From Chloroflexota bacterium (lineage in GTDB: Bacteria > Chloroflexota > Limnocylindria > Limnocylindrales > CSP1-4), in assembly GCA_003141955.1 (NCBI GenBank), contig PLOC01000115.1, forward strand, positions 1,864 through 65,863: a stretch of 64,000 nucleotides of DNA. Reading direction: 5' to 3'. Positions 41,253 through 44,036 of the stretch are shown here, one piece after another (position 1 is the first letter of the stretch; each line of letters begins with the position of its first letter). A program made the position numbers and the translations under genes. The notes beneath the pieces are model-generated. The model was not told the DNA's origin. It did not search any database and was given only the letters and a program-made list of their open reading frames with translations.

Positions 41253-44036
41253 TCACTGGTGCTCGGCTCCATTTCCATCGCCGGGGGCGGCGGCGAGCGC
41301 CGGCGGGAGTGCCGGCAGCCCGTCCCCGGGGTTCGCGAGTCGACCGTCGGCCACGGCGTGGGCGAGCCAGTCGCGTTCGCGCCGGATGTAGGTCACTTCG
41401 GTTTCGCCGCCCATGGCCGCCAGGCCGATCAGGTCGATCATCGGCTGGGACCGGTCGATGTGGGCGAGCTCGTTGTCGGGGCCGCCGCGCAGCGCGTCGT
41501 ACGGGCAGGCGTCGACGCAGATGCCGCATAGGATGCAGCGGCTCTCGTCCACGTCGTACTTCTCCAGGACGCGCGGCTTGGGCATGAGCGCGCCCGTGGG
41601 GCACGTCTCGGCGCAGCGGCCGCAGGAGACGCACGGCGTGTCGTTGAGGCTCATGTCGAGCGGCGTCGTCACCAGGGTGTCGAAGCCGATGCGCATGAAG
41701 TCGTAGCAGGCGGCGCCCACGACATCGGCGCAGACGGCGGCGCAGCGGCCGCAGTCGATGCAGCGCGACGGCTCGCGCAGGATGAAGGCGTGGCTGTCGT
41801 CGCGGATGTAGTCGTGGTTGGCGCCGGTGAAGCGGTTCTCGGTGACGCTTCTGAAGCCGGCGCCTTCGTTGTGGCGAGGCTCCAGCGTTTCGAGCGTCGT
41901 CCCGTACTCCAGGCCGAGATTGCGCAGGTCGCAGTAGCCGATCGCCTCGCAGGTGCACTGCAGGCAGCGGCTCGATTCGGCCATGGCCTCGGTCTGGGGG
42001 TAGGGGATCTCGTACTCGACGTAGCTCCTGTTGCGGTCCTCCGCCGGCATCGCCTTGAGGCGGTGGCGGGGTTCCTTGGGCTCGTCGGTGTAGGGCGTGA
42101 TCGAGAGGAACTTGAGCTCGGGCTCGGCGAGGGTCTCCCGTGCGCGCAGCTCCGAGAGGTCCGTCCCGCGCAGGAAAGCGTCCACGGCGTAGGCGCAGCG
42201 CCGCCCCTCGGCGATGGCCTGTACCACGGTCGCGGCTCCGATACGAACGTCGCCGGTGCCGAAGACGCCGGGCCGGCCGGTCTCGAAGGTGACCGCGTCG
42301 GCCTTGAGCCTGTACCTGGCTTCCTCGATGCCCTCGTTGCCGGGTCCGATCCACGACAGATCGGGACCCTGGCCGATGGCGAGCAGGACGCGGTCGCACT
42401 TGATCACGAACTCGGTCCCCGGCGCGGGCTCGGGGCGGCGACGGCCGGAGGCATCCGGCGCGCCGGGGCGCATGCGGATGAACTCGACGCCTGTGACGCG
42501 ATTCTTGCGGTCGACGATGACGCGCGTCGGGCCGGCCTGGAAGATGGCTCGAGCCCCTTCCTCGAGCCCCTCGTGGACCTCGCTGGCGGCCGGCATGTCC
42601 TTCATGTCGCGGCGGTAGACGAGCGTGACCTCCTTCGCGCCCTGGCGGACGGAGGTGCGCATGCAGTCCATGGCGGTGAAGCCGCCGCCGATGACGACGA
42701 CGCGGCTGCCGGCGTGGCCCGGATAGGGCAGGCCGAGAGTGGCGATCTTGAGGTATTCGAGGCCGTCGATGACGCCGTTGGCGTTCTCGTTTTCAACGCC
42801 GAGCTTATTCGTGTCGTAGCAGCCCGTGGCGACGATCGTGGCGTCGAAGCCCCGCTCGCGCAGGTCGTCCAGGCTGAAGTCGCGGCCGAGGGCCTGGTTG
42901 ACCTCGAGGCTGGCGCCCAGGCGCCAGACGGCGTCGTACTCGGGCTCGAGGACGTCCTTCTTGGGCAGGCGGTACTCCGGGATGCCGTAGCGGAGCATTC
43001 CGCCCGGCTCGGGGTCGCGCTCGAAGACGGTCGTGTCGTGGCCGGATATCTGCAGGTAGTAGGCCGCCGCCATGCCGGCCGGCCCGGAGCCGACGATGGC
43101 GACGCGCTTGTCGGTCCGGGGCTGGGTTTCGAACGGCAGCGGCGGCTCCATGCCGTCCTTCTGCGCCGCGAGCACCACGTCGCCGGCGTAGCGATGGCTG
43201 TCGCGGATGGCGATTGCCTCGTCCACCTCGTCGCGGCGGCAGTGCTCCTCGCACGGTGCCGGGCAGACTCGGCCAAGGATCGAGGGGAACGGGATGGTGC
43301 GCTTGAAGATGCGCGCCGACTCGCGGAACTGGCCCTCGGCGTTGGCCTTGAGGAAGCCCGGGATGTCGATGTGGCTCGGGCACTTGTTCTGACACGGCGG
43401 CAGGCAGTAGGCGTTGTGGTCGCTGAAGATCAGCTCGAGGTTGGTCCGGCGCAGCCGGCGGACCTCGTCGGTCTGGGTTCGGACGACCATGCCCGCCACA
43501 GCTTCGCGGGCGCACGAGATCGTCGGATGATCCTCACCCTCGACCTCCACGACGCACATCCGGCAGGCGCCGAAGCCCGGCAGCTTGGGCTCGTAGCAGA
43601 GCGTGGGGACGTCGATGCCGTTGGCCCGGCAGACCTCGAGGATCGTCTGACCCTCGGTGCCGATGACCTCGCGGTCGTCGATCGTGAGCTTGATGGTGGG
43701 CGTCGAAAGCGGGCGCTGGGGGGCTTGCGCCGTGATCAACCGCTCGGCCGGCGAGTCGTTGAGCGGCGTGACCGTGTCGCGCGGCGCCCTGGCGTCGGGG
43801 CGGCTGTCGACGCGTCCGGCCCTGCGGTTCCAGACCGGCTTTTCGTTGGCGGCGGGCCGCAGGCTCTTCACCGAGGGGGCGTTGGGCAGGGCCGGCAGAG
43901 GGCCGGGGGCGACGACGGGCGGCGCCGCCGGGAGCCTGCTGGCGGGCATGGCGGGCGGGGCGGGCATGGCGGGTTTCCCGGCCGGCGGGGTGGCGGGCGG
44001 GGCGCTCGGGCTGGGTCGGAGGTTCGGTTGACGCAT
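41253..44036 (-). CDS. Composite Fe-S flavoprotein: Pro-rich N-terminal extension, NuoG-type 2Fe-2S domain, inserted GltD-type (FAD/NAD(P)H, 2x[4Fe-4S]) module, NuoG-type 4Fe-4S domains, and the C-terminal half of NuoI
   Basis: 2Fe-2S: LCYEPKLPGFGACRMCVVEV...ISC. GltD: CLPPCQNKCPSHIDIPGFL...GRVCPAPCEEHC, VAIVGSGPAGMAAAYYL, VVVIGGGFTAMDC, GDV...VVQAIAEGR. NuoG Fe-S: CLQCTCEAIGYCDL, CIDCGRCAAVC, CVSCGRCAETCPTGAL. NuoI C-half: YDVDESRCILCGICVDACPYDAL. There is no molybdopterin-like NuoG C-terminal domain. ATG at 44036 lies 9 nt after the nuoF stop. Confidence 0.85.
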   Translation of the reverse strand: MRQPNLRPSPSAPPATPPAGKPAMPAPPAMPASRLPAAPPVVAPGPLPALPNAPSVKSLRPAANEKPVWNRRAGRVDSRPDARAPRDTVTPLNDSPAERLITAQAPQRPLSTPTIKLTIDDREVIGTEGQTILEVCRANGIDVPTLCYEPKLPGFGACRMCVVEVEGEDHPTISCAREAVAGMVVRTQTDEVRRLRRTNLELIFSDHNAYCLPPCQNKCPSHIDIPGFLKANAEGQFRESARIFKRTIPFPSILGRVCPAPCEEHCRRDEVDEAIAIRDSHRYAGDVVLAAQKDGMEPPLPFETQPRTDKRVAIVGSGPAGMAAAYYLQISGHDTTVFERDPEPGGMLRYGIPEYRLPKKDVLEPEYDAVWRLGASLEVNQALGRDFSLDDLRERGFDATIVATGCYDTNKLGVENENANGVIDGLEYLKIATLGLPYPGHAGSRVVVIGGGFTAMDCMRTSVRQGAKEVTLVYRRDMKDMPAASEVHEGLEEGARAIFQAGPTRVIVDRKNRVTGVEFIRMRPGAPDASGRRRPEPAPGTEFVIKCDRVLLAIGQGPDLSWIGPGNEGIEEARYRLKADAVTFETGRPGVFGTGDVRIGAATVVQAIAEGRRCAYAVDAFLRGTDLSELRARETLAEPELKFLSITPYTDEPKEPRHRLKAMPAEDRNRSYVEYEIPYPQTEAMAESSRCLQCTCEAIGYCDLRNLGLEYGTTLETLEPRHNEGAGFRSVTENRFTGANHDYIRDDSHAFILREPSRCIDCGRCAAVCADVVGAACYDFMRIGFDTLVTTPLDMSLNDTPCVSCGRCAETCPTGALMPKPRVLEKYDVDESRCILCGICVDACPYDALRGGPDNELAHIDRSQPMIDLIGLAAMGGETEVTYIRRERDWLAHAVADGRLANPGDGLPALPPALAAAPGDGNGAEHQ

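Follow-up and report, generated by a model that had tools for sequence, protein, structure and literature searches.

Complex I is the textbook NADH:quinone oxidoreductase, and we know of no form of it with a dedicated NADPH site that has been characterised. Here we describe a complex I (nuo) operon in a 64-kb stretch of a Chloroflexota contig (PLOC01000115.1; hereafter "the window"), in which one gene, referred to here as Y, encodes a subunit with a GltD-type module predicted to bind flavin adenine dinucleotide (FAD) and NADPH. The closest described relatives of the electron-input genes of this operon are NfnABC and StnABC of Caldicellulosiruptor saccharolyticus (PDB 9BOV), Thermococcus sibiricus (9N5U) and Sporomusa ovata (8OH5). 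These are soluble, tetrameric, ferredoxin-dependent enzymes encoded by a three-gene cassette for NuoE-, NuoF- and NuoG-like subunits, the last with a GltD/NfnB-like insertion. StnC was described as combining GltD and NuoG domains in one chain that ends in an inactive FdhF-like domain; this formate dehydrogenase (Fdh)/molybdopterin-like domain, which carries a [4Fe-4S] cluster, is needed for assembly of StnABC (PMC10482914). In the structures, the electron path runs FAD-A7-A6-A3-A2-A1-B1-FMN (flavin mononucleotide), with a "dead-end" A4/A5 branch off A2 (PMC11829005). StnC has the same path, and its dead-end clusters, there named C1 and C2, were called a "non-functional evolutionary remnant" (PMC10482914). 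The minimal bifurcation site is B1-FMN-C1, where C1 is the [2Fe-2S] cluster of the NuoE-like subunit (PMC11829005). Deletion of that cluster in StnABC abolishes bifurcation and spares NADPH:viologen activity, and StnC carries an FAD that does not bifurcate (PMC10482914). The B subunit of the Bfu family has a thioredoxin-like domain (B2/Zn site) at its N terminus and, at its C terminus, a 2x[4Fe-4S] domain that binds ferredoxin (PMC9304861, PMC10482914).

Bfu-type proteins have also been connected with complex I itself. Schut et al. (2022) predicted a "Nuo-Bfu" in Geobacter, Deferribacteres, Planctomycetes and Nitrospirae, with 14 subunits (A to N) and a Bfu-type NuoF; as in the window operon, a Bfu-type module replaces NuoEFG in a proton-pumping complex I, and the Bfu genes lie in the middle of the nuo cluster. 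However, the accessible sections of that paper describe no NADPH/GltD module and no split NuoI, and name neither Chloroflexi nor Actinobacteria for Nuo-Bfu (PMC9304861). Mbx-like operons have a GltD-related flavoprotein in place of NuoI (Degli Esposti 2015, PMC4758237), and the Mbh-Bfu of Dehalococcoides has an extra flavin site, the function of which is left open in the available text of PMC9304861. Both resemble the window operon in placing a GltD-type or extra flavin subunit near the NuoI position of a complex-I-related membrane complex. However, by their published descriptions, as far as these are accessible, they are hydrogenase- or sulfur-reductase-type relatives rather than a quinone-reducing complex I with all 14 functions, and no split NuoI is described for them (PMC4758237, PMC9304861). 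Finally, the gene order A-B-C-D-H-I-J-K-L-M-N is that of 11-subunit complexes without an N-module (PMC3144371; 10.1101/2021.02.01.429150).

All nuo genes of the window are on the minus strand, in the order nuoA-B-C-D-H-[I_N::E]-F-[G'::I_C]-J-K-L-M-N. I_N::E (45421-46236) is a fusion gene in which a match to the NuoI profile and matches to NuoE families fall on one open reading frame (ORF); it encodes the N-terminal half of NuoI, a conserved linker and a NuoE/StnA-like domain. Gene F (44045-45424) encodes a NuoF-like FMN/[4Fe-4S] subunit of 459 amino acids (aa), and G'::I_C is gene Y (41253-44036), which encodes an NfnA/StnC-like protein of 927 aa that ends in the C-terminal half of NuoI. All functions from NuoA to NuoN are present in this one operon: A, B, C, D, H and J to N, the E-, F- and G-like subunits, and both halves of NuoI. 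Start and stop codons overlap (ATGA) at the nuoH/I_N::E and I_N::E/F junctions, and the ATG of Y (44036) lies 8 nt past the stop codon of F. In canonical complex I (NuoE, NuoF and NuoG plus NuoI; Thermus Nqo1-3 and Nqo9), E, F and G lie between D and H, whereas in the window they lie inside nuoI. The two share an FMN/N3 subunit, an N1b-type domain, His-type and ferredoxin-type clusters, the NuoI motifs and all membrane and Q-module subunits. They differ in that the window operon lacks the NuoG C-terminal domain and the canonical N1a site, divides NuoI between two polypeptides, has an extra FAD/NADPH module with its clusters, and has a predicted exit through the second cluster of a ferredoxin domain rather than through N5. 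For comparison, we scanned one genome per GTDB species and obtained 571 confirmed stretches, of which the best 80 were analysed in detail. These 80 are nearly all labelled Chloroflexota, mostly Candidatus Limnocylindria/Limnocylindrales. We compared three groups of Y-related proteins: 80 from Limnocylindria, 120 from Thermoleophilia and 60 that are Stn/NfnA-like.

The ORF of Y has 949 codons (41253-44102), with a likely start at ATG 44036; residue positions of Pfam matches are counted along the 949-codon ORF. Pfam matched Fer2_4 at 136-211 (5e-20), Fer4_20 at 233-312 (3e-17), Pyr_redox_2 at 333-633 (2e-23) and two Fer4 motifs at 820-872, and no molybdopterin family was matched in the same scan. 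These results bear out the original prediction, made from the sequence of the window, of a GltD-type FAD/NADPH module in a NuoG-like subunit of a complex I operon that lacks the molybdopterin-like C-terminal domain; all motifs that it quoted were found in the translation of Y. The GltD/NfnB-type module (42159-43409, residues 232-648) has two [4Fe-4S] sites, an FAD site and an NADPH site. Together with the FMN site of the NuoF-like subunit, this makes two predicted flavin sites, as had been proposed. Upstream of the module lies a [2Fe-2S] domain equivalent to N1b and to Bfu A1 (43470-43697), with four Cys that are invariant in 80/80 Limnocylindria and 120/120 Thermoleophilia. Downstream is a CxxCxCx5C motif (41931-41966) that aligns to RCLECGC..EC of NfnA and StnC and is invariant in all three groups. 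With the upstream H229 and C233, this motif would close a His-type cluster domain that hosts the GltD insertion, the cluster assignment being a prediction. There follow a 2x[4Fe-4S] ferredoxin domain (CIDCGRCAAVC and CVSCGRCAETCP; 41598-41762), aligned to NfnA, StnC and HydA, and then a second NuoI motif. The ferredoxin domain corresponds to Bfu A2/A4, i.e., the N4 equivalent plus one further cluster, and its eight Cys are invariant.

The closest relatives of Y in the PDB were NfnA (9bov_A, 6e-162; also 9n5u_A) and StnC (8oh5_C, 1e-138), with NuoG at only ~1e-12 to 1e-25. We modelled residues 105-927 of Y with AlphaFold2, using 61 homologues. The predicted local distance difference test (pLDDT) score was 80-95 over the GltD module, and the [2Fe-2S] part was also confident; we trust the model for residues 1-530 only. 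A Foldseek search with this model returned the same three chains at the top, followed by NfnI-L, NfnB and GltD, for which the target-normalised template modelling score of the GltD module was ~0.76. The window cassette and NfnABC/StnABC are alike in the position of the insertion, in the cluster motifs up to the ferredoxin domain and in the FAD/NADPH residues, including the StnC-R239 equivalent and YRR..MPA. The sequence therefore points to Y being a derivative of NfnA/StnC rather than a NuoG with an insertion: the original prediction was right about the module but not about the protein around it. Likewise, the three cysteine motifs after the module, which it had called NuoG-type, are all present; however, CLQCTCx5C is of the NfnA/StnC type, and a fourth motif, CILCGICVDACP, belongs to NuoI. 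In NCBIfam, residues 136-790 align to PRK12814 (4e-159), with a score of 531 against a family cut-off of 916, and residues 235-644 align to several gltD-type families, each with a score under its cut-off. Since all scores are below the cut-offs, Y is none of the enzymes named by these families. PRK12814 proteins ("putative NADPH-dependent glutamate synthase small subunit", ~650 aa) share with Y the [2Fe-2S], GltD and ferredoxin domains and the absence of a molybdopterin domain, but have no NuoI half and no nuo context. GltD proper is a stand-alone subunit of ~470 aa with GltB as its large-subunit partner. We rejected it as an identity for Y, since the module lies within a 927-aa protein encoded by a nuo operon and falls below all gltD cut-offs. 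Public annotation calls Y "FAD-dependent oxidoreductase" or "formate dehydrogenase major subunit".

Two further features of Y distinguish it from its soluble relatives. A Pro/Ala-rich extension of ~110 aa (43698-44036) precedes the [2Fe-2S] domain; as the original prediction implied, it is coding, with an in-frame G+C content at third codon positions of 0.92. The extension is weakly conserved, and its long form, with a median of 98 aa (41-144), is specific to Limnocylindria; the corresponding lengths are 17 aa for Thermoleophilia and 3 aa for Stn-like proteins. The second feature is a ligand position in the GltD module. Lys170 of StnC, a ligand of the FAD-proximal [4Fe-4S] cluster, was reported to be "strictly conserved" in StnC (PMC10482914). 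We found Lys at this position in 59/60 Stn/NfnA-like proteins, whereas 80/80 Limnocylindria and 120/120 Thermoleophilia have His (His303 of the 949-codon ORF in the window; 43196-43198, RDSHRYAGD). Bifurcating NfnB has Glu at the same position.

The alignment of Y to NfnA and StnC runs through the ferredoxin domain and stops at the NuoI junction. Where NfnA and StnC enter the Fdh-like domain, which bears cluster A5, Y carries a NuoI motif and tail, i.e., the C-terminal half of NuoI (41256-41567). The tail past the last motif is 64-136 aa long in Y-type proteins, as against 323-596 aa for those of the Stn-like group. The N-terminal half of NuoI resides in the I_N::E fusion (45952-46236). Of the 121 positions of the NuoI profile TIGR01971, 1-66 matched the I_N::E ORF and 71-116 the C terminus of Y. 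Similarly, residues 17-83 of the 163-aa Paracoccus denitrificans NuoI (8qby_I) matched I_N::E and residues 93-151 matched Y (E 1.5e-12). Each half has one CxxCxxCxxxCP motif: motif 1, CETCFQCAQACP, is on the E fusion, and motif 2 is CILCGICVDACP, at residues 856-866 of the Y ORF. No further NuoI-like sequence was found when we searched the 64-kb window. The four Cys of the C-terminal half are invariant in 80/80 Limnocylindria and 120/120 Thermoleophilia, and the I_N::E fusion is retained in 70/71 loci. We conclude from these matches that NuoI is apparently split across two polypeptides. The E-F-G' cassette is located inside nuoI, and hence the E-like protein is a fusion with the first NuoI half, and Y ends in the second. 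In a 2x[4Fe-4S] ferredoxin fold, each cluster is ligated by three Cys of one motif and one of the other. If, as homology and linker length suggest, the two halves assemble into one such fold, N6a and N6b would each be ligated by both polypeptides. Through the double fusion, both ends of the input module would be held on the Q-module, which would make up for the missing NuoG C-terminal domain.

The E-like domain (~45460-45864), identified by NuoE families and by StnA/NfnC-like matches, is nearest to StnA/HydC/NfnC (6e-15 for StnA versus ~1e-6 to 1e-8 for NuoE). Cluster C1 of the Bfu core lacks two of its ligands here, T and G having replaced the second Cys pair of the [2Fe-2S] site in the window, and the thioredoxin-like part has no Cys at all in 44 of 72 relatives, most of which are visibly truncated. 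F is nearest to StnB/NfnB/HydB (PDB matches of 3e-100 for StnB versus 4e-78 for NuoF). It aligned only to the StnB core (115-527), and its only Pfam domains are Complex1_51K, SLBB and NADH_4Fe-4S. The N-terminal thioredoxin-like (B2/Zn) and C-terminal 2x[4Fe-4S] domains of Bfu B subunits are absent from F, both in the Pfam scan and in the alignment to StnB, and from 77/77 relatives. F ends 12 aa past a CPAGIC motif (44054-44071), and the relatives end 9-26 aa past theirs, without a ferredoxin motif. A CPxGxC motif is kept at this C terminus in 79/80 sequences; the StnB motif with which it aligns opens the Zn-stabilised linker that leads to the ferredoxin domain, and the motif in F has the look of a remnant of that lost domain. 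Thus, compared with NfnABC/StnABC, the B-type subunit lacks both terminal cluster domains, the C-type subunit lacks its cluster and bears half of NuoI, the A-type subunit has the other half of NuoI in place of the Fdh-like domain, and the whole is embedded in a nuo operon. The FMN site and the adjacent [4Fe-4S] cluster B1 (N3 equivalent) are present in F, with GRGGAGFP, GEET and CGKxIPC..LC conserved. The N-A-D-E-G-D-P-G loop of NuoF/StnB, however, reads H-A-Y-Q-A-D-P-A in the window (residues 96-110, ~45080-45135) and N-G-Y-G-A-D-P-A in most relatives, but N-G-D-E-G-D-P-G in Thermoleophilia. A tandem in-frame peptide repeat, (AAGASG)x3, precedes the F core (~45320-45375) and is not conserved in relatives. 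The original prediction had suggested kinship with Nfn, and among solved structures the nearest relatives of all three proteins (Y, F and E) are indeed the three subunits of NfnABC/StnABC. We take the whole E-F-G' block to be a Bfu-family (NfnABC/StnABC) cassette rather than a modified NuoEFG, and F to be a truncated Bfu B-type subunit.

The order B-C-D-H-[I_N::E]-F-Y-J-K-L-M-N was kept in 80/80 loci as far as the contigs reach. More than 200 protein clusters (90% identity) have the length and domain content of Y. All 28 Fe-S Cys of Y, the FAD GxGxxG motif, the NADPH GGGxxA motif and YRR..MPA are invariant in 80/80, as are GSGPAG, GGGFTA, VYRRDMKDMPA and the StnC-R239 equivalent of the window module; the Fe-S ligands are invariant across ~200 relatives. 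Mean column conservation was highest in the operon for the Y ferredoxin domain (0.98). It was 0.85-0.92 for the GltD module, on par with NuoB (0.92) and NuoD (0.87), and 0.88 and 0.85 for the C- and N-terminal halves of NuoI, respectively, compared with 0.73 for the FMN domain of F and 0.61-0.74 for the E remnant. The GltD module matches its hidden Markov models, and Y is the same single ORF in 80/80 loci, as expected for one gene. We conclude that the Y operon is a lineage trait and not an artefact. Two Limnocylindria-type operons came from metagenome-assembled genomes (MAGs) labelled Polarisedimenticolia (Acidobacteriota) and Dormiibacterota; mis-binning is a likelier cause than transfer, because their proteins are 75-76% identical to the window protein.

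A sister form exists in a second phylum. A search of 50%-identity representatives returned an 816-aa protein, P0134, that is 43% identical to Y and has the same C-terminal NuoI half; its relatives are MAG proteins of ~825 aa from Thermoleophilia (Actinomycetota). Two Thermoleophilia loci (L081 and L083) have the order nuoA-B-C-D-H-[I_N::E, 253 aa]-[F, 636-638 aa]-[Y-like]-J-K, which in L083 continues through L, M and N; a third (L082) has the part of this order that starts at F. The E domain of L081 has a complete Cx4C...Cx3C site, and its F has an N-terminal thioredoxin-like [2Fe-2S] domain, a CCPAGRC hinge and a C-terminal 2x[4Fe-4S] domain. Such features are hallmarks of the bifurcating core (PMC10482914, PMC11829005 and the accessible part of PMC9304861). 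The Thermoleophilia operon is nearer than the window operon to Nuo-Bfu as portrayed in the available text of PMC9304861. In a neighbour-joining tree (670 columns, 200 bootstraps), the fused forms separated from the Stn/NfnA-like proteins in 100% of replicates, and Limnocylindria and Thermoleophilia were each monophyletic at 100%. Since Thermoleophilia have the same operon with a full Bfu-type F and an intact E cluster, the Limnocylindria form appears to be a reduced derivative that has lost the bifurcation hardware of the ancestral cassette. Nine of the 120 Thermoleophilia proteins, namely P0134 and those closest to it, have degenerate NADPH motifs (GDG instead of GGG, YRR lost) and keep the FAD and cluster ligands; this subclade may have lost NADPH binding.

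We also observed the cassette in a third context, together with pyruvate:ferredoxin oxidoreductase genes (L084; ENA ERZ27247713 k141_190188, genes 5052-13150). The order there is porG, an intact porD, porA, a 249-aa BfuC, a 660-aa full Bfu-type B subunit and a 1049-aa GltD-containing A subunit. BfuC has an N-terminal half-ferredoxin motif, CYACTLCERSCP, and the A subunit ends in a second half-ferredoxin motif followed by a PorB (thiamine pyrophosphate) domain. The closest relatives of this BfuC include MAG proteins from Thermoleophilia and Actinomycetia. Given this third context, the split ferredoxin may be a connector of general use that moves together with the cassette.

Taken as a whole, the data are best explained, we believe with moderate confidence, by a complete complex I with an NfnABC/StnABC-derived input cassette inside nuoI, acting as a two-entry NAD(P)H:quinone oxidoreductase. 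Its most likely function would be that of a non-bifurcating, proton-pumping enzyme, and this version of complex I probably oxidises NADPH directly, NADPH being the better-supported of the two substrates. NADPH would reduce the FAD of the module, and electrons would pass first through the two clusters of the GltD module, then through the His-type cluster, and arrive at the branch-point cluster A2. NADH would reduce the FMN of F, and its electrons would reach the same branch point via N3 and the [2Fe-2S] cluster. From A2, electrons would leave through A4, the second cluster of the ferredoxin domain, pass N6a/N6b and N2 and reach quinone, which would drive proton pumping. In Y, a NuoI half takes the place of the A5-bearing domain only 20 residues past the A4-type motif, and we therefore infer that the dead-end branch of soluble NfnA and StnC could be a live exit in Y. 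Nfn-type bifurcation, which the original prediction had raised, is unlikely in Limnocylindria, because the defining features of the Bfu core are gone from E and F. As for origin, the cassette would have inserted into nuoI of an 11-subunit-type gene order, in an acquisition separate from that of canonical NuoEFG, which suggests that complex I gained input modules more than once.

Several points weigh against this two-entry enzyme or parts of it. Confidence is lower for the NADH site than for the NADPH site, since the FMN domain of F is the least conserved part of the peripheral arm (0.73) and its N-A-D-E loop is altered. In the window's subclade, the E-like domain retains a conserved CxCxxC motif and a His, which might yet bind a cluster. 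The arguments for NuoI reassembly and for an exit through the A4-type cluster come from homology and from the 20-residue linker length, and the AlphaFold2 pLDDT falls below 50 from residue 590, i.e., over the whole C-terminal Fe-S region and the NuoI half, leaving the geometry of the junction unreadable. Finally, by protein-cluster names, the relatives of Y that we found come only from uncultured MAGs.

The rival that survives best is an NADPH-only complex I, in which the GltD module is the sole working entry and F and the E-like subunit are structural relics that hold the module onto NuoI. The lower conservation of the FMN domain (0.73) and of the E remnant (0.61-0.74) relative to the GltD module (0.85-0.92), the presence, in most relatives, of G-Y-G in place of the acidic residues of the N-A-D-E loop and the lost or degenerate cluster domain of E are all consistent with such an enzyme. 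However, most F relatives keep the GRGGAG loop, the K-W residues, GEET, the Asp equivalent to StnB D186/Nqo1 E97 and the aromatic residues; the N3 Cys are retained in 78-79 of 80 sequences; and the 459-aa F protein is intact in 77/77 genomes. We therefore regard loss of the NADH entry as unlikely, although a serious contender. We give somewhat less credence to a broader proposal that takes in all three contexts. This holds that the NfnABC-type cassette, with its split NuoI-like ferredoxin, is a portable plug that connects a pyridine-nucleotide module to different enzymes (pyruvate:ferredoxin oxidoreductase in L084, and complex I in the two classes Limnocylindria and Thermoleophilia), that in complex I three or four redox pools are obligatorily coupled, and that the ancestral 11-subunit complex I independently acquired an input module for a second time. 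In the window lineage, NADH, NADPH and quinone would then be coupled in a quinone-linked, energy-conserving transhydrogenase or a bifurcating enzyme, and in Thermoleophilia ferredoxin would be the added pool.

Obligatory coupling of NADH, NADPH and quinone in the Limnocylindria enzyme by itself seems to us improbable. Such a three-substrate machine might split NADH electrons between quinone (downhill) and NADP+ (uphill), or act as a transhydrogenase linked to the proton-motive force. It would fit the derivation of the module from a truly bifurcating family, the complete bifurcating core that the Thermoleophilia sister operon keeps inside complex I, and the convergence by homology of three redox arms on one cluster (PMC11829005). 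However, the ferredoxin-binding and N-terminal domains of the B subunit are gone in 77/77, the C1-type [2Fe-2S] cluster that bifurcation needs (PMC10482914, PMC11829005) lacks two ligands or is absent, and the StnC FAD does not bifurcate (PMC10482914). Still further down, we consider it very unlikely that the module is an output, with complex I running in reverse to make NADPH for biosynthesis from quinol and the proton-motive force. Complex I is generally reversible and the NADPH site is strongly constrained, but the window has no sign of a lithotrophic lifestyle with a high-potential donor, and sequence cannot tell the reverse from the forward direction. In addition, Ellin6529 is described as aerobic Chloroflexota (bioRxiv 10.1101/2021.02.01.429150). 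That Y is a misassembled fusion of two genes, or a soluble oxidoreductase that merely lies within the nuo cluster, as the public labels might suggest, has a negligible chance and is refuted as far as sequence data allow, by the recurrence of this one ORF at the same place in 80/80 independent assemblies and also in a second phylum, by the half of NuoI that the operon would miss without it, and by the translationally coupled junctions.

The two-entry enzyme thus joins complex I and Bfu-family parts in a combination that is undescribed and is widespread in two abundant uncultured lineages; the full-text literature that we searched, in which coverage of subscription journals was incomplete, held no description of the Limnocylindria/Thermoleophilia arrangement. 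If complex I does have an NADPH site here, the anabolic NADPH pool would be linked directly to respiration and proton pumping, in two lineages (Limnocylindria/Ellin6529 and Thermoleophilia) that are very abundant in soil and freshwater. Use of the dead-end branch of NfnA/StnC as a live exit would explain why that branch is conserved, and NuoI clusters that are each ligated by two different polypeptides would be of structural interest. How the ancestral complex I core recruited its input modules is a long-standing question. The two forms, that of Thermoleophilia resembling a full bifurcating module and that of Limnocylindria a stripped one, offer a testable picture of such recruitment and suggest that it occurred more than once. 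Metabolic reconstructions of both phyla probably record complex I without NuoG or NuoI.

The remaining genes of the operon, all on the minus strand, were assigned as follows. We identified nuoA (50180-50536), nuoC (48915-49472) and nuoH (46233-47594) from the ORF list and synteny. For nuoB (49476-50300), the translation has CCxxE, GDC and GCPP motifs; the C terminus of NuoD (47605-48906) has no Cys. NuoD matched Thermus Nqo4 and fungal and cyanobacterial NdhH all at ~1e-90, and these matches do not discriminate between an 11-subunit and a 14-subunit type of core. The genes nuoJ (40679-41278), nuoK (40371-40682), nuoL (38393-40363), nuoM (36858-38381) and nuoN (35385-36845) were assigned from their ORFs, the order in related loci and the Pfam labels of their equivalents in L081-L083.

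Just upstream of nuoA and on the same strand is a gene (52477-53700) for a Methyltransf_28 protein (PF02636, 1e-49). This is the NDUFAF7/MidA family, whose mitochondrial member is an arginine methyltransferase that acts in complex I assembly. A comparable link between Methyltransf_28 and an 11-subunit nuo operon has been reported (10.1101/2021.02.01.429150). Elsewhere in the window, a 2207-aa ORF on the plus strand (19057-25677) has PMT and PMT_4TMC O-mannosyltransferase domains only at residues 1379-1938, with no Pfam match in the remainder, and a TMEM260-like O-mannosyltransferase gene lies near it on the minus strand (15565-17385).

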